From positions 1 to 41,699 of the forward strand of contig JAVZNT010000007.1 in NCBI GenBank assembly GCA_038882655.1: a stretch of DNA of 41,699 nt. The letters run 5' to 3'. This DNA is from Candidatus Bathyarchaeia archaeon. Its GTDB lineage: Archaea > Thermoproteota > Bathyarchaeia > Bathyarchaeales > Bathycorpusculaceae. Position 1 is the stretch's first letter, and each line of letters starts with the position of its first letter. The translations under genes and the position numbers were made by a program. The notes under the pieces were generated by a model that had not been told where the DNA came from, made no database searches, and saw only the letters and a program-made list of their open reading frames with translations. Positions 5,731 through 24,495 of the stretch are shown here, piece by piece.

Positions 5731-7421
5731 TGGAGCTTCTAATAAGAAACGGGTTTGTTTACGACCCCATTAACGGCGTTGACGGAGAAAAAATGGACAT
5801 AGCCGTAAAAGACGGCAAAATAGTTGAGAAAGTCAACGAGCGAAGAGTCAAGAAGATAGATGCTTCTGGGATGGTCGTTATGCCCGGCGGGGTTGACATT
5901 CACAGCCACATAGCCGGCGGCAAGGTCAACGCTGGAAGGCTTCTGCGCCCAGAAGACCACTTTAAAGATTTTGAGCGGAAAACAACCGTCACAAGGTCTG
6001 GTGTGGGCTATTCTATTCCGTCCACTTTTACTACTGGCTACCGCTACGCAAGGATGGGTTGGACAACAGTTATGGACCCAGCTATGCCGCCTTTAGAGGC
6101 GAAGCACACGCATGAGGAGTTAAGCGACACGCCCATAATTGATAAGGCTAGTTATCCGCTGATAGGCGACTGGTGGTTTGTCCTCGAATACTTACGAAAC
6201 GGCAAAATAGAGGAATGCGCTCGTCACGTGGCTTGGATGATTAAGGCGACTAAGGGTTATGCGATAAAGCTTGTAAACCCGGGTGGGCTTGAGGCTTGGG
6301 GTTTCGGACGTAACGTGAAGGATATAGATGATCCGGTTCCATACTTTGGAATCACACCTCGCGAGATTATCCGCGGGCTATGCAGGGTTAATAAGCTTCT
6401 AAACCTGCCACACACAATCCATGTGCACACAAACAACCTTGGGAAGCCAGGCAACTACGTGACAGCCCTAGAAACAATGAAGTGCGTGGAAGATCTAGCA
6501 GAAGACAATAAGCCAGTAATTCACATAACCCACTGCCAGTTCAGCGCCTTCAAAGGCGACGACTGGAGAACCTTCGAATCCGGAGCGGAGGAAATAGCCA
6601 ACTACGTTAATGCACACTCCCACGTGACAATGGACATGGGGCAAGTAATATTCACAGACACCACAACAATGACGGCTGACGGCCCATTCCAATACATACT
6701 CTACACTTTAAGCGGAAACAAGTGGGTGAACCACGACGTTGAAACAGAAACAAGCGCCGGAATTGTGCCATTTCACTACAAAAGGAAGAGCTATGTCCAT
6801 GCAACACAATGGTCTATTGGGCTGGAACTAGCTCTCCTAATTAAAGACCCGTGGAAAATCTTGATGACAACGGACCACCCCAACGGTGGACCATTTATTG
6901 CTTATCCGAGGATTGTGGCTTGGCTTATGAGCAGAAAAGCCAGAGAAGCCACGCTGAAAAAGATTAATCCGAAAGCCAGAAGCAGAAGCCTCCTCCCAAC
7001 AGTAGACCGTGAATTAGGCTTCTATGAAATAGCCATAGTGACAAGGGCGGGGCAAGCAAAAGCCCTAGGGCTTAAAAACAAGGGACACTTAGGTGTCGGC
7101 GCAGATGCAGACATAGCCATATACAACTTTAACCCAGAAATCACCGACCCATCCAAGAAGTATAAGTCTTTGAGGAGGGCTTTCAAAAGGGCAGCCTACA
7201 CCATTAAAGGCGGACAAGTGATGGTCAAAGACGGCAAGGTCCTAAAGCATATTGATGGGGCAACCATGTGGCTGGATGTGCAAACCAGCGAAGAGGCAAA
7301 AATAACAGAGGAAATGAGGAGACGATTTAAAGAGTACTGGACGGTGGAGTTTGAGAACTATCCAGTAAGTGAGGATTATTTGGCAATTTCCAAACCAATA
7401 ACCGTGAAGGCTGAGGTATAA
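5730..7421 (+). CDS. fwdA: Formylmethanofuran dehydrogenase subunit A
   Basis: Amidohydrolase metal ligands DIHSH, KLVNPGG, HVHTNN, HITHCQF and TTDHPNGG all present. Confidence 0.96.
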   Translation: MELLIRNGFVYDPINGVDGEKMDIAVKDGKIVEKVNERRVKKIDASGMVVMPGGVDIHSHIAGGKVNAGRLLRPEDHFKDFERKTTVTRSGVGYSIPSTFTTGYRYARMGWTTVMDPAMPPLEAKHTHEELSDTPIIDKASYPLIGDWWFVLEYLRNGKIEECARHVAWMIKATKGYAIKLVNPGGLEAWGFGRNVKDIDDPVPYFGITPREIIRGLCRVNKLLNLPHTIHVHTNNLGKPGNYVTALETMKCVEDLAEDNKPVIHITHCQFSAFKGDDWRTFESGAEEIANYVNAHSHVTMDMGQVIFTDTTTMTADGPFQYILYTLSGNKWVNHDVETETSAGIVPFHYKRKSYVHATQWSIGLELALLIKDPWKILMTTDHPNGGPFIAYPRIVAWLMSRKAREATLKKINPKARSRSLLPTVDRELGFYEIAIVTRAGQAKALGLKNKGHLGVGADADIAIYNFNPEITDPSKKYKSLRRAFKRAAYTIKGGQVMVKDGKVLKHIDGATMWLDVQTSEEAKITEEMRRRFKEYWTVEFENYPVSEDYLAISKPITVKAEV

Positions 7422-8260
7422 TGTTGGCAAACCTGTACCCGTTAAAAGAGTTTAAACTGCCAATAATGGCTGAATGCATAAACCCAGACATCTTCCAGGG
7501 GAAAAAGCCGAAAGAAATCGAGAAGCTGGAGGTTTGGGAAGGGAACAAGCAAAAAAGGCTTGGAGAACTCTTCAAAGTTGAAGTGACAACCGCGGAAAGC
7601 ACCTCAGAAGCCAATACAATAACTATCCAGGGGAACGTGAACTGCGTGAGGCGAATAGGCGCCGGAATGAAAAGCGGTGAAATAGTTGTTAAAGGCGACG
7701 CTGGCATGCACTTGGGCGAAGAAATGCATGGCGGAAAAATAACAGTGCACGGCAATGTTTTAGGCTGGGCTGGCTCCATGATGAAGGGAGGAACAATAGA
7801 AATTCACGGGAGTGCCGGCGACTATTTGGGTGCGCCTTATCGCGGAAGCACAGAAGGCATGAAAGGCGGAAAAATAATTGTATATGGAAACGTTGGAAAT
7901 GAAGCCGGAGCCCACATGAGAAAAGGCATAATAAAAATTTACGGAAATGCTGGGCAGTTTGTAGGCTTCAAGGTGCATGGCGGCACAATTTACGTACAGA
8001 AAAACTGTGGCGGGAGAGCTGGAGCATGCATGACGGACGGAACAATAATCGTTGGTGGCTTCTTGGAATCTATCCTTCCAACATTCACAATTGAAGGCAT
8101 AAGAAAGAAGGCTAAAATTGAAGAGGGCGAAGTTGTGGAAGCGTCCTTCTACCTTTTCCTCGGAGACCTAACAGAAAACGGTAAGGGAAGACTTTACGTG
8201 GCTAAAGAACCCAACCCCCACCTAAGCCACTATGAAAAACTTCTCTATAGAGAAGGGTAA
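7421..8260 (+). CDS. fwdC: Formylmethanofuran dehydrogenase subunit C
   Basis: GXGXG beta-helix repeats (GxxMxGGxIxxxG) and GAPYRG...GM.GG. Confidence 0.95.
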   Translation: MLANLYPLKEFKLPIMAECINPDIFQGKKPKEIEKLEVWEGNKQKRLGELFKVEVTTAESTSEANTITIQGNVNCVRRIGAGMKSGEIVVKGDAGMHLGEEMHGGKITVHGNVLGWAGSMMKGGTIEIHGSAGDYLGAPYRGSTEGMKGGKIIVYGNVGNEAGAHMRKGIIKIYGNAGQFVGFKVHGGTIYVQKNCGGRAGACMTDGTIIVGGFLESILPTFTIEGIRKKAKIEEGEVVEASFYLFLGDLTENGKGRLYVAKEPNPHLSHYEKLLYREG

Positions 8261-8264
8261 GCCG

Positions 8265-9227
8265 ATGAATAGCGGTTTAAGCGTAAACCGTTTGGCATGG
8301 AAACTACTGGAAAAACTTTGTGGCGACCCCGAATACTACGGCGTGAAAGTTGAAAGGTCGGAGTGCGAAGCCATAATTGTTGACGCTGGAATAAATGTGC
8401 GTGGCGGCTTCCAAGCTGGCAAAGTTATAACGGAAATCTGCATGGGAGGATGTGGAAAAGCCAGAATAGGCTTTTGGCAGTATGGCGAATTTGAGCTTCC
8501 AACAATATTTGTTTACACAGATCACCCAGCAATATCCACTCTAGGCTCCCAGTTTGCAGGATGGAACATTAAGGAGGGCGACTACTTCGCCATAGGCTCT
8601 GGACCGGCGAGAGCCCTAGCTCAAAGACCAAAGGAGATCTATGAGAAGATAGGCTATAGGGACGAGTTTGAAAAAGCCATAGTGGTTTTAGAAACCGACA
8701 AAGTTCCGCCTGAAAGACTTATGCGGAGGCTGGCTGAAGATTGCCACATTCAATGTGAAAATCTAGCGTTAATCTTGACTCCGACAGCAAGTCTAGCCGG
8801 AGCAACACAAGTAGCTGGAAGAATAGTTGAGACTGGAATCCACAAACTCTCAAAGCTTGGCTTTAACCCAAACGCAATTCTTTATGCTTGGGGATGCGCC
8901 CCCATACCGCCAACTCACCCAAAATTTGTCAAAGCTATGGCTAGAACCAACGACGCTATCCTATATGGAGGCATAACCCATTATATTGTTGACTATGAAA
9001 ACGAAGAAGAACTTGCCAAAATAGTGGAAAAGGCACCATCAAAAGCATCAAAAGACTATGGCAAACCCTTCATGGAAATCTTCAAAGCCGCCAACTACGA
9101 CTTCTACAAAATAGACCCAAACATATTCGCACCAGCAAAAATAACAATAAACAATGTAAGAACAGGCAAAACGTTCAATGCGGGAGAAGTCAATGTTAAA
9201 ATTTTAGTGAACGCCTTGATAAGCTAA
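8265..9227 (+). CDS. mch: Methenyl-H4MPT cyclohydrolase
   Basis: LSVN, EICMGG, GSQFAGW, GSGPARAL, RIVETG, RTND.ILYGG, FYKIDP..FAPA motifs; ATG at 8265, just after the fwdC stop. Confidence 0.95.
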   Translation: MNSGLSVNRLAWKLLEKLCGDPEYYGVKVERSECEAIIVDAGINVRGGFQAGKVITEICMGGCGKARIGFWQYGEFELPTIFVYTDHPAISTLGSQFAGWNIKEGDYFAIGSGPARALAQRPKEIYEKIGYRDEFEKAIVVLETDKVPPERLMRRLAEDCHIQCENLALILTPTASLAGATQVAGRIVETGIHKLSKLGFNPNAILYAWGCAPIPPTHPKFVKAMARTNDAILYGGITHYIVDYENEEELAKIVEKAPSKASKDYGKPFMEIFKAANYDFYKIDPNIFAPAKITINNVRTGKTFNAGEVNVKILVNALIS

Positions 9228-9802
9228 TTAGTTTGGGTTTTAGCGTATAGTTTTACAGCCTCTGCTATCACATGACCTAACGGAACAGTGTAAAGTGCCA
9301 GCGTAGCATTAAAAAACGCGATGAATGGGAGAGCCGCCATTACTGCTTCTTCTGGCATTGCAAACCCAACCGGCGGCGGAAACCGCAGGAAAGCCCAGTT
9401 AATCACTGTCATAATTCCTACTCTAAAGACTATACCGAAAGCCGTAAGCACAAATGCCAATGTCCGCCTGTCTGCTTGAGGGTTTTTATGAATGATTTTC
9501 GGTATGGAGATGCCTATAAGCATGCTTATCACCGCTGCCAAATTATAGAGCGGACCGGTTAACAGCATGCCTGGAAAAACCATGAGTAATACGAGCGTAT
9601 TTAGTGCTGCGATAGCTATTCCGGCTATGAAACCGTAAAGAAGGAATGCTGCAACTATTGGAATTTCCCACACTTGATATATTAGGTATGGCGCGTAGGG
9701 TGCTGGTATTTTTATTGGAGAAAGATTAAGCGAAATTGTGAGTGCGGCGAATACGGCTATAACGGCTATTGTTTTGACACGTATCCTAACATTTTTTGTC
9801 AT
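9224..9802 (-). CDS. ECF transporter S-component
   Basis: 192 aa, about 6 TM; IAVFAAL, P.APYL.Y..WEIP and FNAT.A motifs of the RibU/PanT-like fold. Substrate unknown. Confidence 0.75.
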   Translation of the reverse strand: MTKNVRIRVKTIAVIAVFAALTISLNLSPIKIPAPYAPYLIYQVWEIPIVAAFLLYGFIAGIAIAALNTLVLLMVFPGMLLTGPLYNLAAVISMLIGISIPKIIHKNPQADRRTLAFVLTAFGIVFRVGIMTVINWAFLRFPPPVGFAMPEEAVMAALPFIAFFNATLALYTVPLGHVIAEAVKLYAKTQTN

Positions 9803-9858
9803 TGATTGCTCCTTTCCCTCTTCCTTCAGTTACCGAAAATCTCTACAATTATTATTAA

Positions 9859-9870
9859 GAGTAGCTACTC
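9859..9870. promoter_or_regulatory. Palindrome GAGTAGCTACTC, candidate operator
   Basis: Perfect 12-bp palindrome in an AT-rich divergent intergenic region. Confidence 0.4.
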
Positions 9871-9938
9871 AAAAATAAGTACAGTTTAACACTTTAAAAT
9901 TTAATATGACTTTTGTCTATCTCTATTTGGGAGAAGCT

Positions 9939-11195
9939 TTGTCAACAAGCCTTAAAATCGCTTTCCATGAGCTTAGGAACTGGCTTGAGGGCGAAACCGG
10001 CGCCGTTCTCAGTCCGGTGCATGCTAAGGCTGAGAGGCTTCTAGGCGAGATGCGGGAAGCCCACCAAGACTTGATTGAGGCTTGCCACATGCTTTTAGAG
10101 AGCAGCCGAAAAGAAATTGAGAAACGTAACATGCGCACTTTTAAGAGGGCTCAAGCCCTAAACAAACTTGCCAAAATCTTCCTTGAAAGGATGCAGCCGC
10201 TTAAGGTTCCTGAGAAACCATCCTTTAACGATGTTGAAAATTTTGTTAACGCCGCCCAGAAGGTTTATGCTGTCACGGATGTTGATGTCAGAAACTGGTT
10301 TCCAAGAATTTCGCCCTTCTTCATAATGGATAGGGGAAAATTTTTAAGGGTTTTTGAAAGCGCAAAAGGTTCGCTTAAGGATGTTAGCGAGTTTTTAACA
10401 AAAGAGTATGTTAAGGCTAAGGTTTTGGAGGAAACCTTCCAGTTCATAGAAGAGGTTAATAAGTTGAAGGAGCGGGCGGCGGCTCTAAGAGAGAAAAGAA
10501 AGAGGACTGAAGCTGAAAGGATGAAAGTTGAGGAGGAGATGGCTGACGTCCACCGTAGGATTGTTGAGCTTGAGAAAAGTGGCGGGTTAAGCCACTTGGC
10601 AGAGTTAGACGAAGCAATAGGCAGATTAAGAAGGGAAGCTGAGTACTGCCTTAGGCACCTTCAAAAGCCTCTAATAAAGCTTCAGTCGCTTGCTTCTCAT
10701 GGTGAGGGGAGCGGCTTAACACCTGAAGAGTTGAAAAAGCTTAATCATTATTTGGAAGATCCTTTTGAGGCTTTAGCTACAGAAAATTTAGGATATCCGC
10801 TTTTGAGGCAGATTCTTCAGAAAGCAATGCGGCTTATGGCTGAGGGCAAGCTTAAACTTAAACCAGATAAGGAACGCAAAGCGAGACAAGCCATAGAAGA
10901 AATCCTCAATAAGGATTCGCTTGCAAGCCTATATCAAAAATGCGTGGACGCCAACCAGCGTAAAGCCCAACTCTCGGCATCCTTAACCTTAACCGAAGCA
11001 AAGAGCGAAATGGCAAAGCTAAATGAGCAAAATGATAGGCTGAAGAAAAAGGCTGAAAGCTTGGAAGCTGAAATAGAGGCGGCTGAAAAAGGCTTAAAGG
11101 ACGTTGCTGCGAAAATTCTCGAGTGTAAAAGCCGCATGGAAAAGAACATCCTCAACTTTTCTGGGAAGAAAGTTGAAATAGCCATCGAGGTTTGA
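9939..11195 (+). CDS. Hypothetical coiled-coil protein
   Basis: E/K/L/A-rich heptad segments, no Walker motif. Likely TTG start at 9939 after GGGAG; the ORF is open from 9906. Confidence 0.75.
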   Translation: MSTSLKIAFHELRNWLEGETGAVLSPVHAKAERLLGEMREAHQDLIEACHMLLESSRKEIEKRNMRTFKRAQALNKLAKIFLERMQPLKVPEKPSFNDVENFVNAAQKVYAVTDVDVRNWFPRISPFFIMDRGKFLRVFESAKGSLKDVSEFLTKEYVKAKVLEETFQFIEEVNKLKERAAALREKRKRTEAERMKVEEEMADVHRRIVELEKSGGLSHLAELDEAIGRLRREAEYCLRHLQKPLIKLQSLASHGEGSGLTPEELKKLNHYLEDPFEALATENLGYPLLRQILQKAMRLMAEGKLKLKPDKERKARQAIEEILNKDSLASLYQKCVDANQRKAQLSASLTLTEAKSEMAKLNEQNDRLKKKAESLEAEIEAAEKGLKDVAAKILECKSRMEKNILNFSGKKVEIAIEV

Positions 11196-11205
11196 GGCAG
11201 AGGTT

Positions 11206-12138
11206 TTGCAGAAGCCAGATCTTAAACAAATTGTCAAAGAAGCCTTCGAAGCCACCTGCTGGGATTTCTGCCGCATCGTTCAAGAGGCAAGAGAGCTAAT
11301 CTGCAAGGAAAATGGGCGAATCGGGAATTTTGAGGTTATCGGGAGGATTGTTAAGCTTTCGCCAGTCGGCGGGGCACTGGTTGTTGGGGACTTGCACGGC
11401 GACCTAGAAAGCCTAATAGAAATCTTAACCAGAAGCAATTTTCTAAATAAGCTAAACCAAAACTCAAATGCAACAATAATTTTTCTCGGAGATTATGGCG
11501 ATAGAGGCCCCTTATCCGCTGAAGTCTATTACACAATCTTGAAGCTTAAGCTACACTTTCCAAGGCAGGTAATCCTAATGAGGGGAAACCATGAGGGACC
11601 AGAAGACCTTTTGGCTTCGCCCCACGACCTGCCATGGCAGCTCCAAGCAAAATTCGGCAACGTGTGGCAAGAAGCTTACAAGGAAATCTTCAAACTTTTC
11701 AAGTGCTTATATAACGCTGTGGTTGTTGAGGAACGCTACCTAATGGTTCACGGCGGTGTGCCGCCACAAGCAAAAAATTTAGAGGATTTAGCCCACGCAC
11801 ATGAGAGGCATCCAAAAGAAAGCCTTTTGGAGGACATCCTCTGGAGCGACCCAAACGAAATGATAAATGAAACGTGCGCTTCGCCTCGCGGAGCAGGAAA
11901 ACTTTTCGGGCAAAAGGTCACGGAGGTAGCCCTACAAAACTTCGGCGTTAACGTTCTCATAAGGGGACACGAGCCCTGCGAGGAAGGCTCCAAAATAAGC
12001 CATAATGGGAAAATCCTAACACTATTCTCGAGGAAAGGACCGCCGTACTTCAATCTTAACGGCGCATATCTGGTAATAGAGCTTTCCAAAAAACCGAGAA
12101 ATGTCAGAGAACTAATATCGTATGTCTATAGGTTCTAA
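11206..12138 (+). CDS. PPP-family Ser/Thr protein phosphatase
   Basis: GDLHGD, GDYGDRG, RGNHE, HGG, LWSDP, SPRG, IRGHE and TLFS motifs. Confidence 0.9.
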   Translation: MQKPDLKQIVKEAFEATCWDFCRIVQEARELICKENGRIGNFEVIGRIVKLSPVGGALVVGDLHGDLESLIEILTRSNFLNKLNQNSNATIIFLGDYGDRGPLSAEVYYTILKLKLHFPRQVILMRGNHEGPEDLLASPHDLPWQLQAKFGNVWQEAYKEIFKLFKCLYNAVVVEERYLMVHGGVPPQAKNLEDLAHAHERHPKESLLEDILWSDPNEMINETCASPRGAGKLFGQKVTEVALQNFGVNVLIRGHEPCEEGSKISHNGKILTLFSRKGPPYFNLNGAYLVIELSKKPRNVRELISYVYRF

Positions 12139-12211
12139 GATATTAAAGCTGGAAGTATAACTTTAAAAAATGGTGCTGAAGATAGATACTTTACTGCTGG
12201 GAGGCTATGAG

Positions 12212-12913
12212 ATGAAAAGCAAGGAGAATCTATTGTTAAGTGCTCTTGGAATAATGTTTGAGCATCTTAGGCATGTAGAAGCTGAAAGAAGACAATTTTT
12301 CTACTTCCACACATTGCTTATTACGGCATTTTTATCCACATCTCCTGTTTTATGGTCCATGTGGAAAGGCGTAGTCGTGATCCTTGTTTATTTTCTTTCT
12401 GCTTTTTCGCTCATAATTTACTACTATAACCTAAGAGCAAACGCCAATATTTCAGAACATGTCACAGTAATCCAATGGATTTCTGAAAAATTAGGGTTGA
12501 TAAAAAAGATGGAAGAATCCGAAAAAGAACATTTAAAACTAAAGCTCAAAAAATTAGGTGTAAAAGAAATAAAGGAATACTCTTTTTTCAAGGATGTATA
12601 CATATGTATTCCTTCTCCGCTTTCAATAAGCATTCACGAGGTAGTTTTCACTTCTTTCCCTAGGTTTTTAACTTCAGTTTTCTTTGCTACGGCAAATGTG
12701 CTTGCTGTTTGGTGTTTGATAGTAGAAATCTTGAGAATTGTTGGCTTAGATGTTATAGTAATGCTGTTTATCCTCATGCTCGCAGCTTTGTTATCATTTG
12801 CATGGATGTGGCGTCATTGCGGACGTAAGCTAAGGCAGATTAAAAGAGAATCGCTTGTTTATAAAAAAGTGCGAAAACCAAAAGAGATAGTTACATGGAG
12901 CGAAACTGGTTAA
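12212..12913 (+). CDS. Hypothetical membrane protein (about 4 TM), AT-rich
   Basis: Two hydrophobic hairpins separated by a charged loop; GGGAGG precedes the ATG at 12212; visibly lower GC than its neighbours. Confidence 0.65.
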   Translation: MKSKENLLLSALGIMFEHLRHVEAERRQFFYFHTLLITAFLSTSPVLWSMWKGVVVILVYFLSAFSLIIYYYNLRANANISEHVTVIQWISEKLGLIKKMEESEKEHLKLKLKKLGVKEIKEYSFFKDVYICIPSPLSISIHEVVFTSFPRFLTSVFFATANVLAVWCLIVEILRIVGLDVIVMLFILMLAALLSFAWMWRHCGRKLRQIKRESLVYKKVRKPKEIVTWSETG

Positions 12914-12976
12914 GAAACCTTAAAAGTTTAGCTTAAGAACTTTTCATTGTTGAAAGTTTGATTAAAGGCGGTTAGT

Positions 12977-13855
12977 TTGAAGTTTGGAATTGTTACGCGA
13001 AACCCAAACGCCTACAGTTCAGCCCAGCTTCGTGAGGCACTGTCTAGACGCGGAATACCTTACGTCTGCTTTAGTTTTCCTTGGATCGTTGCTCGTGTTG
13101 GGTATAAGCCCTACCTAAATGTTAGAAGCGTTGATGTTTTGAAGGATTTGGATGCCTTAATAATCCGTCCGATTGGGCGGGGCTCTTTGGAGGAGATTGT
13201 TTTCCGTATGGATTTGCTTTACCGTCTTGAAAGGCTTGGCTTTTATGTCGTTAATCCGCCAGAAGCCATTGAACACTGTGTTGACAAATATGATTTGCTG
13301 GCGATTTTGGAGGATGCTGGCATACCAGTGCCGCGGACCGCTGTTATGGAGGATGCCGACGAAGCTTTGAGGGCTTTTCATGAGCTTGGCGGAGACGTTG
13401 TTCTTAAGCCCATTTTCGGCTCTAGGGGGATGGGCTCAACACGCATAAACGATCCAGAAGTAGCCTACACAGCCTTTAGGGCCATAACTTTCTATCATGG
13501 CGTAATCTACCTTCAAGAGTTTGTGCCTCATGGATGTTCTGATATCCGCGCCTTTGTTATAGGCGACCGTGTTGTCGCCGCCATGCGCCGCGTCGCCCAA
13601 AGCTGGAAAACTAACTACAGTCAAGGAGCCCGCCCAGAACCAATAAAACTTGACAATCAACTGGAAGATTTAGCCATAAAATCCGCCCAACTAATAAAAT
13701 GCAAAATTGCAGGAGTGGACATCCTAGAAAGCCCAAAAGGTCCGCTGGTGGTAGAGGTTAACAGCCAACCTGGATGGAGGGGCTTACAATCTGTCACGCG
13801 GGTCAATATTGCAGACGAAATAGTCGATTTCGTGCTTTCGGAACTGAAAAAATAG
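12977..13855 (+). CDS. RimK/MptN-family alpha-L-glutamate ligase (ATP-grasp)
   Basis: GSLEEIVFRMD.L, DKY, VLKPIFGSRG.G, YLQEFV, DIRAFV, WKTN..QG and EVNSQPGW motifs; C1-cluster context suggests cofactor glutamylation. Confidence 0.85.
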   Translation: MKFGIVTRNPNAYSSAQLREALSRRGIPYVCFSFPWIVARVGYKPYLNVRSVDVLKDLDALIIRPIGRGSLEEIVFRMDLLYRLERLGFYVVNPPEAIEHCVDKYDLLAILEDAGIPVPRTAVMEDADEALRAFHELGGDVVLKPIFGSRGMGSTRINDPEVAYTAFRAITFYHGVIYLQEFVPHGCSDIRAFVIGDRVVAAMRRVAQSWKTNYSQGARPEPIKLDNQLEDLAIKSAQLIKCKIAGVDILESPKGPLVVEVNSQPGWRGLQSVTRVNIADEIVDFVLSELKK

Positions 13856-13880: not shown

Positions 13881-14651
13881 GTGGAGATAGTTAAAATTGA
13901 CACCGCAGCCAAGACGGTCCATAAGACTGAAGACTATGTGGCTGAAGAGAAGCCCATCCACATATTCATAAACAAAAGGCATTATGCCACAATAATGTGC
14001 ACACCAAGAGACCTTAAGGAATTAGCCGTTGGCCACCTCCTAACAGAAGGCATAGCTAAGGCGATTGAAGAAATCGAAAAAATAACGTTTAAAGAGGATG
14101 CGTGTCGCGTAAATCTAAAACCAAGCGTAAACTTCGAAACTCGCCTAAAATTTGCAGGGCTGTTCTCTCGCATAATTCCATCAGCTTGTGGAGGATCCTA
14201 CCAGCCCCAAGTCTTAAAGACCCTTAAGAAAGTCAGCTCGAAAACGGCTGTTAGGGCTGAAACCATCCAAAGCTGCGTAAACAGTTTAAATCGATTAACG
14301 GAAACTTTCAGAAAAACTGGAGGGGTGCATGCCGCCGCCATCTACAAAGCTGATGGGACGCTTTTGGCTTTCGCCGAAGATGTTGGCCGCCACAACGCCG
14401 TGGACAAAGCCATCGGAAAATGCGCCCTAAACAAAGCTTCTTTCGGCGAATGTTTTCTGGCTTTAAGTGGCCGACTGACCGCTGACATAGTCCTTAAAGC
14501 TGCAAGGGTTGGCATACCAATAATAGCCTCCATAGCTGCAGCCTTAAACTCTGGCATAAAGGTTGCCCGAAAGGCGAATCTGACACTAATAGGCTTTGTT
14601 CGCGGAAATCGCATGAATATTTACAACGCGCCGGAGAGAATCCTTTCATAA
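13881..14651 (+). CDS. fdhD: FdhD sulfurtransferase (Mo/W-bis-PGD maturation)
   Basis: E.P..I, LAVGHL.TEG, TGGVHAAA, EDVGRHNAVDK.IG, SGR and GFVRG motifs. Confidence 0.92.
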   Translation: MEIVKIDTAAKTVHKTEDYVAEEKPIHIFINKRHYATIMCTPRDLKELAVGHLLTEGIAKAIEEIEKITFKEDACRVNLKPSVNFETRLKFAGLFSRIIPSACGGSYQPQVLKTLKKVSSKTAVRAETIQSCVNSLNRLTETFRKTGGVHAAAIYKADGTLLAFAEDVGRHNAVDKAIGKCALNKASFGECFLALSGRLTADIVLKAARVGIPIIASIAAALNSGIKVARKANLTLIGFVRGNRMNIYNAPERILS

Positions 14652-15622
14652 GGGTCTTCAGTCTTCTCCGGAAATCGCCTTTCCTTCCCGCCTTTCACAA
14701 GTATGCGCCTTTTGTCTTCTGTGAATATTCCCAAGAAACAAGCTTCAAGGTTGTGCTCTTCCAACACTTTTCCAACCTCGCCTTTGGCTTTTGGGCTGGC
14801 GGCAGCCAAAACTGTGCCGGTTGAAGACATGGAGAGCAGTTGCCTATTCGAAAGCCCGAAACTCTCTTTGAGTTTTTGAGCTTCGGGGCATATTGGAATT
14901 TTTTCAAATTCTATTCTGAACCCAACCCCTGAGGCGTCAGCCATTTCATTTAATGAGGCTACCAGCCCACCCTCTGTTAGGTCGTGCATGGCGTGCATAC
15001 CGTTGATTTCGGCAAGGGCGAGTGTTTCTTTAACGCTGCTTTGAAGGACTACAAGCCTTGACAGTTCGCTGGTTCGCTTTTTCCCGAAAAGTTTTTCAGC
15101 TAAATTCCTATTCATGAGGGCTAGGTTGACGGCTATCTCTAGGCCTAACGGTTTTGTGCAGACAATGAGGTCGTTAGGCTTTGCATTGCCCGGAGTTTTA
15201 AGCTTCTCTTTTTCCACTAGGCCATAGGTTGTGCAAACCCCTACAAGCGTTGACAAACCCTCATATGTGCCAGTGTGCCCAGTCACTACGGCCAAGTCCA
15301 AGTCTTCTGCGGCTTTACATGCTTGCCTCATAACCCCTTGAAAGGTCGAAGGCTTAGTGGCTGGAGGCCCGAGGAGGTTTATGGTGCAGAACTGAGGTTT
15401 GGCTCCGAAAAGTGCCACGTCTGACGCTGCGTAGTGAATTAGAAGCCATCCGAACCATTTTTCTGGAACACCTATGCAAGGGTCTGTGGAGACGACAAGC
15501 CACTTGTCGCCTATCAAGTGCACTCCTGAATCATAGCCAACCATCGGCGGAATAATTATGCGACTGTCCCTTTTAATGCATTTCAACAGTCTTTTGAGGT
15601 TTTTTGGGCTTAGTTTTCCCAT
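14621..15622 (-). CDS. AIR synthase-related (PurM/ThiL/HypE superfamily) protein
   Basis: G.DSGV, STDP, ASDVA..GA.P, GHT and AMHDLTEGGL...L.EMA motifs. Confidence 0.85.
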   Translation of the reverse strand: MGKLSPKNLKRLLKCIKRDSRIIIPPMVGYDSGVHLIGDKWLVVSTDPCIGVPEKWFGWLLIHYAASDVALFGAKPQFCTINLLGPPATKPSTFQGVMRQACKAAEDLDLAVVTGHTGTYEGLSTLVGVCTTYGLVEKEKLKTPGNAKPNDLIVCTKPLGLEIAVNLALMNRNLAEKLFGKKRTSELSRLVVLQSSVKETLALAEINGMHAMHDLTEGGLVASLNEMADASGVGFRIEFEKIPICPEAQKLKESFGLSNRQLLSMSSTGTVLAAASPKAKGEVGKVLEEHNLEACFLGIFTEDKRRILVKGGKERRFPEKTEDPYERILSGAL

Positions 15623-16336
15623 CTATTTTTCCTTTAACAGTTCTATGCCTTTGCTGGTTATGCGGAAGGGAATCCACTCCAACGGATGTTCGCACCCTTC
15701 TATTTTGACTATGCGGAGTTCGCGGCGGCATTTCTCCTCGTTGAATCTGAAGAGGAAGATGTTGTGTGCCTTGTTAAGGTCTAGGTCTGTCGCCCGTTGT
15801 GTGGCGATGTCCTTCTGGGTTGCAGCCGTCATAATGTCAATGTTAACAATGTTGTCGTAGTGACACCAGTTAATCGTCCAATCCTCAACAGGCTCCATAT
15901 ACTTTAAATCGTATAACGCAAAAAGCTGCTCACTGAAATCCCCAGCCGCAAACCTTGTCACACCCTTTTCAGAAAGCAACCGGTCAATACATTTCATTTC
16001 TTCAAAGTCTTCTAGGCTGAAATAGATTACTCGCGGGTCTTTTGGATAAGGCTCAAAATGGGGAAAAGCCTGAATGGCGATAAACCTACCATTCTCAATG
16101 TACGGTTCAATGTTCCAGCCGAAAGACTTGAAATAGGCTATAAGCCTTGGAAAAGGCTTATCCATAACATCATAAGCCACGGTTTCGCCTTCGCACAAGC
16201 CTTGCCATAAAAACTGCATGGCAAAAACAGTTTTGCCAGTTCCCGGCGGACCGTAAAGAATGTTCCTTGAGCCAGACTCGATGCCACCTCCTATTAACTC
16301 GTCGAAACCCTTGATGCCAGTTTTAAGCTTAGCCAT
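15623..16336 (-). CDS. Single-domain KaiC/RAD55-like P-loop protein (degenerate catalytic motifs)
   Basis: KTGIKGFDELIGGG, Walker A GPPGTGKT and C-terminal RELRIVK..G..H....PF.IT.KGI; ATG at 16336 follows AAGGAG. Confidence 0.85.
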   Translation of the reverse strand: MAKLKTGIKGFDELIGGGIESGSRNILYGPPGTGKTVFAMQFLWQGLCEGETVAYDVMDKPFPRLIAYFKSFGWNIEPYIENGRFIAIQAFPHFEPYPKDPRVIYFSLEDFEEMKCIDRLLSEKGVTRFAAGDFSEQLFALYDLKYMEPVEDWTINWCHYDNIVNIDIMTAATQKDIATQRATDLDLNKAHNIFLFRFNEEKCRRELRIVKIEGCEHPLEWIPFRITSKGIELLKEK

Positions 16337-16349
16337 TTTCGCTACTCCT

Positions 16350-16886
16350 TTAAAGGAATATTTTAAGCAGTTTACTTTCATGCAGTAGGAATATTATGTA
16401 GATGCTTATGGCAAGTTCCGGCAGTATATAGCTTCCATTGTATATGGCTGAATAAATCACTGGATGCATTCCTTCAGGGGCGTAGCTGGCGAAGAAAATT
16501 ACTCCTGAAATAAAGTGGGCTAGGAAACGTCCCCAAATTCCAGCATTAACGCCCACAAAGGGACGATTACGGAAAAACCCGGCCAATCCAAGAGCGCCGA
16601 AAGCCAAAGGATAGTCTAAAAGCACCTGAAGCGGATGAACAATAAAGGGCTCAACAGCCAACTGCACAAGCCCATATACAGCAGCTGCAAACAACCCGAC
16701 TTTTGGGCCTCTTCGCAAAGCCAGCCAAAGTATAGGCACCATAGAGCCAGCCGTTACAGACCCGCCTTGTGGAAGACTGAAAACCTTAATGTAGCTTAGA
16801 GCTGTTGCAAGCGCCACAAAAGTTACAACTTCAGCGATTATCTTAGTTGGAGAACTGATTTTAGGCTCTAAACTTTTCTCGTTCAC
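16350..16886 (-). CDS. thiT: Thiamine ECF S-component ThiT
   Basis: PQGGSVT, HPLQVLLDYPLAF, HFISGVIFFASYAPEG and YSAIYNGSY motifs; TPP riboswitch directly upstream. Confidence 0.93.
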   Translation of the reverse strand: MNEKSLEPKISSPTKIIAEVVTFVALATALSYIKVFSLPQGGSVTAGSMVPILWLALRRGPKVGLFAAAVYGLVQLAVEPFIVHPLQVLLDYPLAFGALGLAGFFRNRPFVGVNAGIWGRFLAHFISGVIFFASYAPEGMHPVIYSAIYNGSYILPELAISIYIIFLLHESKLLKIFL

Positions 16887-16983
16887 GGTCTTTCCCTCCG
16901 CCGGTATTACCCGGATCAGGTTCTAGGGGTCGACGGCGCTTAGCCGTCCTCTCAGCCGGGTCACCGCCCAGCTCCCCCAGACC
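16887..16983 (-). promoter_or_regulatory. TPP riboswitch aptamer
   Basis: Minus strand reads GGTCT-GGGGGAGC...GCTGAGAG...GACCCCT-AGAACCTGATCCGGGTAATACCGGCGGAGGGAA-AGACC: the UGAGA and CUGAU..UAAU..GCGnAGGGA consensus elements, with P1 GGTCT/AGACC. Confidence 0.93.
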
Positions 16984-17009
16984 CTTGAGCGGAGTAATTG
17001 TTATGTACT

Positions 17010-17024
17010 TGTATATTTATCTTT
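17010..17024 (-). promoter_or_regulatory. Probable BRE/TATA promoter of the riboswitch-thiT operon
   Basis: Minus strand AAAGATAAATATA about 30 nt upstream of P1. Confidence 0.5.
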
Positions 17025-17046
17025 CCTAAAGTCGAAGTTTGTTAGG

Positions 17047-19518
17047 ATGTCTAGTATGAAGCCTTTGCCAAAAGAGTTTGACGTATCTGCTGTTGAGCGG
17101 AAGTGGCAGGAGCTCTGGGAAGATTGGGGCATATACCGTTTCGACTGGAAAGACTATAAGCGTCCAGTCTTCAGCATTGACACTCCACCGCCTTATCCTT
17201 CCGGCGAGTTCCACATGGGGAACCTCCTGAACTGGACCTATTTCGACATCGTCGCCAGATATAAACGCATGAAAGGCTACAATGTTTATTTTCCGCAGGG
17301 ATGGGACTGCCACGGTTTAGGCATAGAAGTTCAAGTGGAAAAAGAACATAATATTCGCAAACGGGACCTGCCGCCAGACAAGTTTCGCAGTCTGTGCATG
17401 CAACTGGTTGAAAAGTACATTGCCATGATGAAAGAGGGTATTGTAAGGCTTGGATGCAGCGTTGACTGGACAACAGAATACCGCACTATGGATCCGGATT
17501 ACTGGCGGAAAACCCAGCTAAGCTTCATAATGCTGTATCGCAAAGGCTTCATTTATCAGGGCGCGCATCCGGTCAACTGGTGCCCTAGATGTGAAACTGC
17601 CATTGCAGATGCTGAAGTGGATTACGAAGAGCGGGAGGGCAAACTCCACTACATAAGGTTTCCATTGGCGGACGGCAGCGGGTACCTCCTAATAGCCACA
17701 ACTCGCCCAGAATTTATACCAGCATGCGTAGCCGTAGCCTTAAACCCAACGGACACCCGTTACACGAAATACATCGGAAAATACATAACTGTGCCAATTG
17801 TAAACCGTGTTGTGGAAATAATCCCAGATGAAGATGTTGAACCATCCTTCGGCACAGGTGTTGTCATGATTTGCACATATGGCGACAAGGAAGATGTTCG
17901 CACTGTTAAAAGACATAACTTGCCAGCAATCACGATTTTGACGGAAAATGGGCTGATAAACGAAAATGGCGGAAAATATAAGGGCTTAACGGTGGAGGAA
18001 GCCAAGGAAGCAATAGTTAAAGACTTGAAGGCTGAGGGGCTTTTGGAAAAAATCGATTCCATAAGACAGGAGATAGGCATATGTCAAAGATGCGAAACCC
18101 CGATAGAGATTTTGGAGCGCAAGCAGTGGTTTATGAAAACCAGAATCCTAACAGACCGTGTGGAGAAAGAAGCCCACGAGGTCGTCTGGTACCCTGATTA
18201 CATGAAGTATCGCCTTATAGACTGGGCGCGTTCGCTGGACTGGGATTGGGTTATAAGCCGCCAACGCGTGTTCGCCACGCCCATACCCATATGGTACTGC
18301 AAAAAATGCGGAGAAACTATTCTGGCTGAAGAAAGCTGGGTTCCAATAGACCCAAAACTTGAAAAGCCACTAATAGAAGCTTGCCCAAAATGCGGATGCA
18401 AAGAATTCGCTCCAGAAACTGACGTCTTGGACACATGGATGGACTCATCAATATCGTGCGCAGTGCACGCCGGATGGCCAGACCGTGAAGACTGGAGAAG
18501 GCTTTTCCCTGCAGACGTGCATCCTTCAGGCGTGGACATCATCCGCACATGGGCATATTACCTCATGGTTAGGCACTTGGCACTGTTCGACGAGAAGCCC
18601 TACAAAAGCTGCCTAATTAACGGTATGGTATTAGGCGCTGATGGCAGAAAAATGAGCAAATCCCTAAAAAACTATGTGGCAACACCGGAAGTCCTTGATA
18701 AGTATGGAGCTGACGCTGCCCGACAATGGGCTGCAGGAGGTGGAGCTACAGGCTCAGACATTCCATTTCGATGGCCAGACGTGGAATATGGTAGACGCTT
18801 CCTAACGAAGCTTTGGAACGCCGCCCGCTTCGTAGGCAGCCAACTCGCAGATTATAAGCACGGCAACGGCGACCATGAGCTTCAATTGTTGGACAAGTGG
18901 ATTTTAAGCAAAGCCGAAAAGCTAATCCAGAGGGTTACAGAAGCCCTTGAAAAATGCCAGTTCAACATAGCCCTCGAAGAAACCCGCAACTTCACTTGGC
19001 ACATTTTCTGCGACCAATACATTGAGGCTGTCAAAGACCGCCTATACAAGCCCGAATTGTATGGTGAAGCTAAAAGAAAGGCCGCCCAATATACGCTTTA
19101 CACGGTTTTATACCGCATACTGCAGTTGCTGGCGCCCATAACACCTCACATAACAGAGGAGATATACCAGCACATGTACGCCGAACACATAGGCATGAAA
19201 AGCATGCACAAGACTCAATGGCCCCAAGTGGACGCGGGTAAAATCGACGAGAGAGCAGAAAAAGAGGGTGACTTGCTAATAACAGTCATAACGGAAATCA
19301 GAAGAGAGAAGGCTGAAAAGCGGAAGCCCCTCAACGTATCCATAAAGCTGGTTAAAATTTACGCTAGGAACAAAGACTACGCGAGAATCCTCGAGGAGAA
19401 CAAGGAAGATATCGCTGGTACATGTAAGATCTCAAAACTGGAGATTTTGCCCGAAAAAGGTGATGGTAGGCGAGTGCCGCAATACCCGGAATTGAGCTTC
19501 ACAAGCGAATATGACTGA
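17047..19518 (+). CDS. valS: Valine--tRNA ligase (archaeal type)
   Basis: DTPPPYPSG.FHMGN (HIGH), GWDCHG, ATTRPE editing domain, DWVISRQR and KMSKS. Confidence 0.96.
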   Translation: MSSMKPLPKEFDVSAVERKWQELWEDWGIYRFDWKDYKRPVFSIDTPPPYPSGEFHMGNLLNWTYFDIVARYKRMKGYNVYFPQGWDCHGLGIEVQVEKEHNIRKRDLPPDKFRSLCMQLVEKYIAMMKEGIVRLGCSVDWTTEYRTMDPDYWRKTQLSFIMLYRKGFIYQGAHPVNWCPRCETAIADAEVDYEEREGKLHYIRFPLADGSGYLLIATTRPEFIPACVAVALNPTDTRYTKYIGKYITVPIVNRVVEIIPDEDVEPSFGTGVVMICTYGDKEDVRTVKRHNLPAITILTENGLINENGGKYKGLTVEEAKEAIVKDLKAEGLLEKIDSIRQEIGICQRCETPIEILERKQWFMKTRILTDRVEKEAHEVVWYPDYMKYRLIDWARSLDWDWVISRQRVFATPIPIWYCKKCGETILAEESWVPIDPKLEKPLIEACPKCGCKEFAPETDVLDTWMDSSISCAVHAGWPDREDWRRLFPADVHPSGVDIIRTWAYYLMVRHLALFDEKPYKSCLINGMVLGADGRKMSKSLKNYVATPEVLDKYGADAARQWAAGGGATGSDIPFRWPDVEYGRRFLTKLWNAARFVGSQLADYKHGNGDHELQLLDKWILSKAEKLIQRVTEALEKCQFNIALEETRNFTWHIFCDQYIEAVKDRLYKPELYGEAKRKAAQYTLYTVLYRILQLLAPITPHITEEIYQHMYAEHIGMKSMHKTQWPQVDAGKIDERAEKEGDLLITVITEIRREKAEKRKPLNVSIKLVKIYARNKDYARILEENKEDIAGTCKISKLEILPEKGDGRRVPQYPELSFTSEYD

Positions 19519-24202: not shown

Positions 24203-24298
24203 GGGCCCGTAGCTCAGTAAGGATAGAGCACCGGGCTTTTAAGCCACAAAAGCCAAGAAACCCGGGGGTCCCGGGTTCAATTCCCGGCGGGCCCGCCA
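24203..24298 (+). tRNA. tRNA-Lys(UUU) with 18-nt intron at 37/38 (24242-24259) and encoded CCA
   Basis: Acceptor stem GGGCCCG/CGGGCCC, D-stem GCTC/GAGC, anticodon stem CCGGG/CCCGG with CT-TTT-A, T-arm CCGGG-TTCAATT-CCCGG, then GCCA. Confidence 0.93.
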
Positions 24299-24416: not shown

Positions 24417-24495
24417 GGGGTAGTCGTCTAGCTTGGTCAAGGATACCAGCCTGGGGCGCTGGCGATCCTGGGTTCAAATCCCAGCTACCCCACCA
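24417..24495 (+). tRNA. tRNA-Pro(GGG), encoded CCA
   Basis: Acceptor stem GGGGTAG/CTACCCC, anticodon arm CCAGC-CTGGGGC-GCTGG, T-arm CTGGG-TTCAAAT-CCCAG, then ACCA. Confidence 0.95.

Follow-up and report, generated by a model that had tools for sequence, protein, structure and literature searches.

How is imported thiamine activated in archaea in which the known thiamine-activating kinases are not found? The question is raised by a stretch of 41,699 nucleotides (nt) from a Candidatus Bathyarchaeia archaeon (contig JAVZNT010000007.1; hereafter, the window), in which a thiamine pyrophosphate (TPP) riboswitch precedes thiT, the gene for the S component of an energy-coupling factor (ECF) thiamine transporter, which is followed by genes for a KaiC-like protein and for an enzyme with the fold of PurM/aminoimidazole ribonucleotide (AIR) synthase (Table 1). 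This cassette is a real conserved module, in which the salvage logic is as in bacteria and the parts are different. Given its context and the gene content of the genomes that carry it, we see a slightly better than even chance that the cassette serves thiamine salvage in thiamine-auxotrophic Bathyarchaeia and that the PurM-fold enzyme is a new thiamine kinase, which converts thiamine to thiamine monophosphate (TMP) and thereby feeds ThiL. The enzyme probably represents a new kinase family. The main sample consisted of 61 Bathyarchaeales genomes, namely the source genome (G000, 84% complete) and 60 relatives, 39 of the 61 being at least 90% complete; wider samples included 301 genomes of the phylum and 401 genomes of the class. 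Related genomes are not independent observations, and all counts are given without a statistical test.

Table 1. The thiamine cassette of the window, its control elements and the flanking genes
Feature	Coordinates	Strand	Remarks
thiT, ECF-type thiamine S component	16350..16886	-	GTG start, 178 amino acids (aa); TIGR02357 above cut-off, PF09515 E 7e-49
Gene for single-domain KaiC/RecA-fold protein	15623..16336	-	ATG start, 237 aa; PF06745
Gene for PurM/AIR-synthase-fold enzyme, GHT[GA]xY subfamily	14621..15622	-	333 aa; Pfam AIRS and AIRS_C; candidate thiamine kinase
TPP riboswitch aptamer	16875..16988	-	Rfam RF00059 match
Putative archaeal promoter (purine-rich BRE-like run and TATA-like box; BRE, B recognition element)	17012..17027	-	Read from sequence
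fdhD, convergent flank, outside the module	13881..14651	+	TIGR00129 above cut-off
valS, divergent flank, outside the module	17047..19518	+	Open reading frame (ORF) named from its sequence, without a family scan

The initial annotation of this DNA, made from the letters alone, had described a TPP riboswitch followed by thiT, a KaiC-like gene and a PurM-fold gene with gaps of 13 nt (thiT to the KaiC-like gene) and 0 nt (KaiC-like gene to the enzyme gene), and family searches bear out this composition. The aptamer, most of which lies just beyond the range 14621..16886 of that annotation, matches RF00059 over model positions 1-105 of 105 with 75.4 bits against a gathering cut-off of 54.3 (E 3e-13) and folds with a z-score of -3.1. 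ThiT scores 143.4 bits against the TIGR02357 cut-off of 108.45 and 166.8 bits with PF09515; the KaiC-like protein scores 107.6 bits with PF06745 and has the RecA/KaiC fold with a Walker A motif; and the last protein belongs to the PurM/AIR synthase superfamily on the strength of its AIRS and AIRS_C domains (both above the Pfam cut-offs), its fold and its conserved motifs of the DxxxxGAxP and HD types. The longest ORF called for the KaiC-like gene starts at 16381, within thiT; in all 13 orthologues compared, the alignment begins with the residue whose codon is at 16336 or no more than two residues away from it.

Conserved synteny, which had been proposed as a check, was found in Bathyarchaeales. 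Orthologues of the enzyme (at least 54% identity) are encoded in 20 of the 61 genomes, in all 20 directly behind thiT or thiT-kaiC, and each of these genomes also contains the riboswitch, whereas thiT as such is present in 29 genomes. The KaiC-like orthologue occurs in 14 of the 61 genomes and is located between thiT and the enzyme gene in 14 of the 20 cassettes, being missing from the remaining six. An independent scan of 19 enzyme loci showed thiT in 18 of them, the contig of the 19th ending inside kaiC, and the junction gaps within the cassette span approximately 0-41 nt (39 loci). In the phylum sample, enzyme matches with more than 50% identity are limited to this order; the enzyme was also detected in one genome of another family of the class (G428). 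Where close homologues come with a source name, it is Bathyarchaeia.

The position of the cassette is informative as well. All 15 riboswitch sites without an adjacent thiT were fetched and read: 10 lead thiC, nine of these visibly as thiC-thiDN-thi4 (eight of the nine also beside fdhD); two lead cytX-thiDN-thiW followed by a P-loop gene; one leads genes for an ECF S component, a methyltransferase, a related PurM-fold protein and ThiE; one is cut off, and one has unclear content. In the valS-riboswitch-fdhD arrangement of relatives, thiC-thiDN-thi4 or cytX-thiDN-thiW takes the place of the thiT cassette; the slot is therefore an exchangeable thiamine cassette. At G026:C1:426751-426863 (L088), a TPP aptamer has no recognizable thiamine gene after it, and the next ORF looks ParA/MinD-like.

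The gene content of the carriers points to a specific missing step. ThiC or ThiN is encoded in one of the 20 enzyme carriers (G018 only) versus 28 of the 41 non-carriers, or, among the genomes at least 90% complete, in one of 17 versus 17 of 22. None of five near-complete carriers tested has ThiE above the cut-off or a true ThiD, for which there were only weak partial PF08543 matches. A ThiL match is present in 55 of the 61 genomes, including 19 of the 20 carriers, in 17 of which it exceeds the cut-off. Neither thiamine pyrophosphokinase (TPK, PF04263) nor ThiK (TIGR02721) was found in any of the 61 genomes, with positive controls for both searches. Given these absences, and given that, in the available text of bioRxiv 10.1101/2020.03.04.976639, the ThiL of Pseudomonas aeruginosa does not phosphorylate thiamine, the step from thiamine to TMP appears as a hole in these genomes. 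The cassette thus offers a candidate for the activation of imported thiamine in an abundant archaeal order that lacks a detectable ThiK or TPK even though many of its members encode ThiT. EcfT (PF02361), part of the transporter, was found in four of five genomes tested, with no match in the 84% complete source genome. As a side observation, the ThiT variants at L021, L023, L026, L248, L262, L266 and L273 have a hydrophobic insertion of 50-70 aa around residue 110, which may add two membrane helices.

The enzyme matches 17 NCBIfam models, each with a score under the respective cut-off, among them SelD (TIGR00476, 92.9 versus 125 bits; also the top phmmer match), ThiL (TIGR01379, 85.8 versus 184.15 bits) and HypE (TIGR02124, 68.9 versus 251.6 bits). 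With HypE, SelD, PurM and the uncharacterized AIR-synthase-related proteins it has the fold in common. The last of these are also called PurM-like1. Databases label the homologues of the enzyme as 'AIR synthase-related' or 'hydrogenase maturation factor', and the source genome encodes a separate HypE-like gene (G000:C3:25407). The structure model (predicted local distance difference test score, pLDDT, 94.7) has the PurM fold; in a Foldseek search with this model (E 5e-25), the top match was Thermococcus HypE, and HypE, SelD and ThiL are matched at approximately 20% identity. The enzyme retains D31, D47 and D68 as well as H213-D214-x-T216-E217, the Asp set and the HDxTE motif being invariant in 36 of 36 orthologues, and D68, G73, H213 and D214 are likewise invariant among the 36. 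In ThiL structures, the corresponding residues serve as metal ligands.

Membership of the last gene in the superfamily of ThiL, as claimed in the initial annotation, is upheld by the PurM fold, the template modeling score (TM) of approximately 0.7 and the conserved Asp residues at the metal/ATP site that it has in common with ThiL structures (PDB 3c9r/3c9t, 8yks, 2yxz). A role as the replacement of ThiL was considered and rejected: the score is less than half of the ThiL cut-off (86 versus 184 bits), a true ThiL is encoded elsewhere in the source genome (on C24, 260.7 bits versus TIGR01379), and where ThiL has GG[ED][ED]Y and the C-terminal GW[EY]HF, the window enzyme reads SSTGT and DPY. The former motif is present in the ThiL of G000, 8yks and 2yxz, and the latter in the ThiL of G000 and 8yks. 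The earlier proposal that the last gene salvages or phosphorylates imported thiamine finds good support in context, namely in the linkage to thiT, the rarity of ThiC and ThiN, the failure to find ThiK or TPK, and the thiamine links and ThiN fusions of the wider subfamily described below.

A diagnostic motif separates this enzyme from its paralogues. We labelled 87 PurM-like proteins by their neighborhoods before examining motifs (two broken copies were dropped); 48 of these share GHTGxY together with the dipeptide SD (S67, G118 and Y120 in 100%), of which 36 are linked to thiT, 11 to thiDN, ThiN or ThiE, and one is unlabelled, whereas the remaining 39 have GHxE and ND in 100%. Thiamine genes are present at the locus of 47 of the 48 GHT-motif proteins (46 by blast within 1.6 kb; G042 was labelled by hand for its thiE) versus none of the 39 GHxE paralogues. 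In a careful tree with 47 rows, built from 33 of the labelled proteins and 14 metagenome proteins and with the motif columns left in, the two types separate at a support of 100/99; in a quick tree, the Shimodaira-Hasegawa-like approximate likelihood ratio test (SH-aLRT) gives 98. The GGHxE paralogue is near-universal in the order, is found in the source genome (C3:42235-43966; L097:4236-6042) behind a different ECF S component and is distinct from the GHT[GA]xY subfamily; given that the careful tree separates the two, an origin of the enzyme by duplication of the GGHxE paralogue of the source genome itself is not supported. In many Thermoproteota this paralogue follows an ECF S component (PF07155), and in one genome (G223, locus L141) it adjoins pdxS-pdxT; this paralogue might phosphorylate a different vitamin, perhaps B6.

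The GHT[GA]xY subfamily extends beyond the thiT cassettes. Of 581 metagenome relatives, the 80 best were examined: GHT[GA] is present in every one of the 80, and either a TPP-like leader or a thiamine gene at a distance of up to 1.5 kb accompanies 65 of them; when the regular expression (regex) used for TPP leaders was compared with Rfam, 13 of 14 positive loci and none of six negative loci were confirmed. Among the gene orders at the metagenome loci are TPP-thiE-enzyme, which was seen in high-GC contigs, TPP-enzyme with no further gene, TPP-ECF-S-enzyme and TPP-thiT-enzyme, the enzyme in the last case being from a distant subclade (L237, L238, L241) only 27-29% identical to the window enzyme. 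Four fusions of the GHT[GA]xY enzyme to ThiN were identified (three representative proteins and G441). As judged from GC content and gene order, the high-GC contigs are probably bacterial; hence the subfamily is thiamine-linked across archaea and, probably, bacteria. A widespread family, whose members now wrongly carry the names AIR synthase or hydrogenase maturation factor, thereby gains a motif by which it can be recognized and a hint as to its function.

Under the preferred explanation, thiamine salvage would proceed as follows. At low TPP, the aptamer would leave the ribosome site of thiT open; thiamine would be imported by ThiT together with the shared EcfAA'T module; the PurM-fold enzyme would use ATP to phosphorylate thiamine on its hydroxyethyl group, giving TMP; and the separately encoded ThiL would turn TMP into TPP, which would then shut off the translation of thiT. 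The enzyme would thus be a non-orthologous stand-in for ThiK, and the KaiC-like protein would be an accessory to the ThiT module that binds nucleotide, is degenerate in its catalytic motifs and is not part of every cassette. The simplest single activity that can be proposed for the enzyme is that it phosphorylates the hydroxyethyl group with ATP, and only intact thiamine would be a useful substrate in the thiT clade because no condensing enzyme is present there. ThiK itself belongs to a kinase fold different from that of PurM. The proposed route from thiamine through TMP to TPP, with ThiL as the second enzyme, is the one that the available texts describe for ThiK and ThiL of Escherichia coli (PMC3020362; bioRxiv 10.1101/2020.03.04.976639), with the difference that the candidate for the first step here has the PurM fold and that ThiK has no match in the 61 genomes. 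In the salvage system of Lactococcus lactis, RSthiT-ThiT-TPK (ThiN), as far as the available text of PMC8862789 presents it, a TPP aptamer likewise precedes an ECF ThiT in the absence of de novo genes; the window differs in its archaeal host, the lack of TPK in the 61 genomes, the linked PurM-fold and KaiC-like genes, and the ribosome site inside the aptamer.

Several observations weigh against this explanation. In four assemblies (G019, L107, L119, L255), a stop or frameshift interrupts the enzyme gene. Four genomes (G015, G022, G031, G059; 84-97% complete) have the riboswitch and thiT without ThiC, ThiN or the GHT-type enzyme, so the enzyme is not needed everywhere; by analogy with L. lactis ThiT, which according to the available text of PMC8862789 binds TMP and TPP too, these organisms may import TMP or TPP. 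ThiL was not found in one enzyme carrier, the 97% complete G016. Furthermore, the activity of the thiT clade may differ from that of the sister clades given the length of its stem (1.1-1.45 changes per site), and most relatives outside the thiT clade are located with ThiE, ThiN or ThiDN, a location that points to a part in thiazole salvage for those relatives.

The G016 genome, along with G118 (99% complete), which has a member of the subfamily and no ThiL match at E 1e-25, would be accommodated if the enzyme were a one-step thiamine pyrophosphokinase or dikinase (SelD-like, with AMP release) or a second TMP kinase, bypassing or backing up ThiL; SelD as the top NCBIfam and phmmer match of the enzyme is also compatible with this possibility. 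Nevertheless, given that ThiL is retained in nearly all carriers, that the two ThiL motifs are absent from the enzyme and that, if the enzyme acted on TMP, the step from thiamine to TMP would still lack a catalyst, we regard both variants as unlikely.

Equally unlikely, in our estimation, is the possibility that the family is a kinase for the salvage of hydroxyethylthiazole (HET) or of the pyrimidine, or that it repairs damaged thiamine analogues taken up via ThiT, and does not phosphorylate intact thiamine. The sister clades lend it some credence: their genes are adjacent or fused to those for ThiN, ThiE, ThiDN, ThiW or CytX, ThiM is below the cut-off in five of five sister-clade genomes, G307 has ThiW, ThiDN and the enzyme without Thi4, and a methyltransferase co-occurs in TPP-led clusters. 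However, the thiT-clade genomes lack ThiN (19 of 20) and ThiE and ThiD (five of five tested), so that the phosphorylated thiazole (HET-P) would be unusable; G032 and G034 have ThiW without the enzyme, along with a small P-loop gene that is found in G307 too; and G042 has ThiE beside the enzyme and no ThiD. The occurrence of ThiW without the enzyme, together with the presence of ThiE in the absence of ThiD and Thi4 in G042, favors thiamine over HET, and the sister-clade enzymes beside ThiE or ThiN could act on thiamine, HET or both.

Two observations that touch on these pathways deserve separate mention. A small P-loop protein of approximately 190 aa follows thiW in genomes without ThiM (L089:4520-5095, L090:2858-3490, L138:5430-5984) and is a candidate HET kinase. 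A TPP-led ECF S component and a class I methyltransferase recur with the GHT enzyme and ThiE or ThiN (L093, L111, L198, L200, L202, L279), possibly for the salvage of a demethylated or otherwise modified thiamine analogue. In G042, where ThiE is present, searches for ThiC and ThiN also found no match.

The extent to which the riboswitch controls the two genes downstream of thiT depends on the layout of the leader. The GGAGG ribosome site (approximately 16895-16899) lies inside the 3' core of the aptamer, and the 3' strand of P1 abuts the GTG start codon of thiT; nearly all of 41 aptamer-positive thiT loci, judged by eye, have this layout (the regex located the aptamer in 41 of 46 thiT loci, a few of which duplicate one genome). 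By this arrangement of its sequence, the window aptamer is of the direct translation-attenuation type, resembling the case in the available text of Barrick and Breaker 2007 (PMC2258182), where the purine-rich 3' core likewise doubles as the ribosome site. Because the ribosome site is part of the aptamer, the riboswitch is predicted to control directly thiT only; and because the KaiC-like and enzyme genes each have their own Shine-Dalgarno-like sequence, TPP control of these genes would act by translational coupling or polarity at most, on a transcript predicted to contain all three genes. The earlier claim that the riboswitch leads all three genes is therefore sustained for thiT, with any control of the downstream genes presumably indirect; moreover, in three genomes of another family, the KaiC-like gene is outside the control of the riboswitch given that it is transcribed head-to-head with riboswitch-thiT, away from it (in two of these, a different PurM-fold gene converges on it). 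RF00059 scores above the cut-off in 37 of the 61 genomes of this single archaeal order, as compared with the few archaeal riboswitches counted in the available text of McCown et al. (PMC5473149).

A promoter-like motif is located approximately 25-30 nt upstream of the aptamer, and a similar motif is visible before many homologous aptamers; a poorly calibrated BRE/TATA regex missed this leader promoter and matched one site within thiT, and a scan for bacterial-type promoters and terminators gave counts at or below those of shuffled sequences. Three sequencing runs consulted for expression yielded short contigs of relatives and no information on co-transcription. The matched BRE/TATA-like string, in the end of thiT and 24-40 nt ahead of the KaiC-like start, as well as the action of the riboswitch at the thiT ribosome site only, would fit a scenario in which the downstream genes are hitch-hikers without a thiamine function, thiT alone being thiamine-related. 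Given, however, that the string is not seen in most homologues, that the enzyme gene remains linked in 20 of 20 cases and the KaiC-like gene in 37 of 38, the rearranged divergent layout among them, and that ThiN fusions exist, this scenario is very improbable. The 58-nt gap at 16989-17046 is common to the riboswitch promoter and the divergent valS start, and one TATA-like box in it is readable both ways.

The KaiC-like protein appears to be a degenerate member of its fold. In KaiC-type ATPases, a Glu-Glu pair, the Walker B Asp and the arginine finger of the K-x-R motif have catalytic roles. In the window protein, Walker A is intact, EE is replaced by MDK, the Walker B Asp by Gly and K-x-R by K-x-E. 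Among 120 homologues, the catalytic-Glu site reads [MFLVT]DK in 111 and [MI]NK in seven, the Walker B site AAGDF in 108, and 110 retain Walker A in the form KT or KS; the finger site is K-x-E in 105 of the 106 in which the pattern was read. These losses with Walker A retained suggest a nucleotide- or ligand-binding pseudo-ATPase; on sequence grounds, the protein is probably such a pseudo-ATPase and an optional member of the cassette. No cut-off is reached among 16 NCBIfam models, and a circadian KaiC is ruled out by the length of 237 aa versus approximately 500 aa for the double-domain protein and by scores of 89 versus 408 bits (NF006799) and 61 versus 546 bits (TIGR02655). The structure model shows a single KaiC domain nearest to the archaeal single-domain ATPase PH0284 (2dr3, Foldseek E 3.5e-18) and the CI domain of KaiC (TM 0.74-0.77), with which the protein has the RecA/KaiC fold and Walker A in common and from which it differs in the three replaced motifs and in its tight link to thiT. 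In the ESM Atlas, only KaiC-domain clusters were matched, the look-alike cluster at rank 2 being mostly from Armatimonadota.

In the class sample, the KaiC-like gene occurs in 38 genomes, with thiT adjacent in 37 and the last copy at a contig end, and the link of this gene to thiamine uptake survives rearrangement given that adjacency to thiT is kept in the divergent layout. Thus, one member of a poorly understood archaeal KaiC-like family is tied to a definite metabolite pathway. The place of the gene in the module, as originally put forward, holds in this form, as an optional member; that its product regulates uptake, as was also suggested, is a doubtful proposal, for which gene linkage is the evidence. 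A complex prediction for the KaiC-like protein, ThiT and the enzyme gave a score of 0.00, which counts neither for nor against interaction. That the KaiC-like protein is instead the true small-molecule kinase or key catalytic part, with the PurM-fold protein as an auxiliary, is the least credible of the alternatives. In its favor, some RecA-fold proteins are small-molecule kinases, Walker A is widely kept, and the KaiC-like protein is by far the best conserved of the three, with a median identity to the window copy of 88% in 13 genomes (enzyme, 64%; ThiT, 63%). However, the gene is missing from six cassettes that retain thiT and the enzyme, and the protein has lost the catalytic Glu pair, the Walker B Asp and the Arg finger alike.

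A broader extension of the thiamine kinase proposal, which we consider speculative and rather unlikely, is that the GHT[GA]xY branch constitutes a third family of thiamine-activating kinases besides ThiK and TPK, distributed across archaea and several bacterial groups, and that the P-loop of the KaiC-fold pseudo-ATPase senses TPP or the energy charge, gating ThiT or the kinase post-translationally atop the riboswitch. No account of the cassette or of the enzyme family was found in the literature searched; surveys of the archaeal ThiR regulon and of archaeal KaiC proteins, and supplements, were outside this search and may list the genes. Nothing was found that joins Bathyarchaeota with a TPP riboswitch, or AIR synthase with thiamin and a riboswitch, and the available part of PMC9997740 does not mention AIR synthase, PurM, ThiL or ECF.

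At the border of the module, the 3' ends of the enzyme gene and of fdhD, which converge, share 31 nt (14621-14651), and this overlap recurs in several relatives. The neighboring region 7421-13855 contains genes related to one-carbon (C1) and methanopterin metabolism, including ORFs that we take, from their sequences, to be FwdC-like and Mch-like, and an MptN-like ATP-grasp ligase that is below the cut-off; an ECF S-like gene is located at 9224-9802. Two tRNA genes occupy positions 24203-24295 and 24417-24492, and the anticodon loop of the first is interrupted by an insertion of approximately 18 nt that is probably an archaeal intron.

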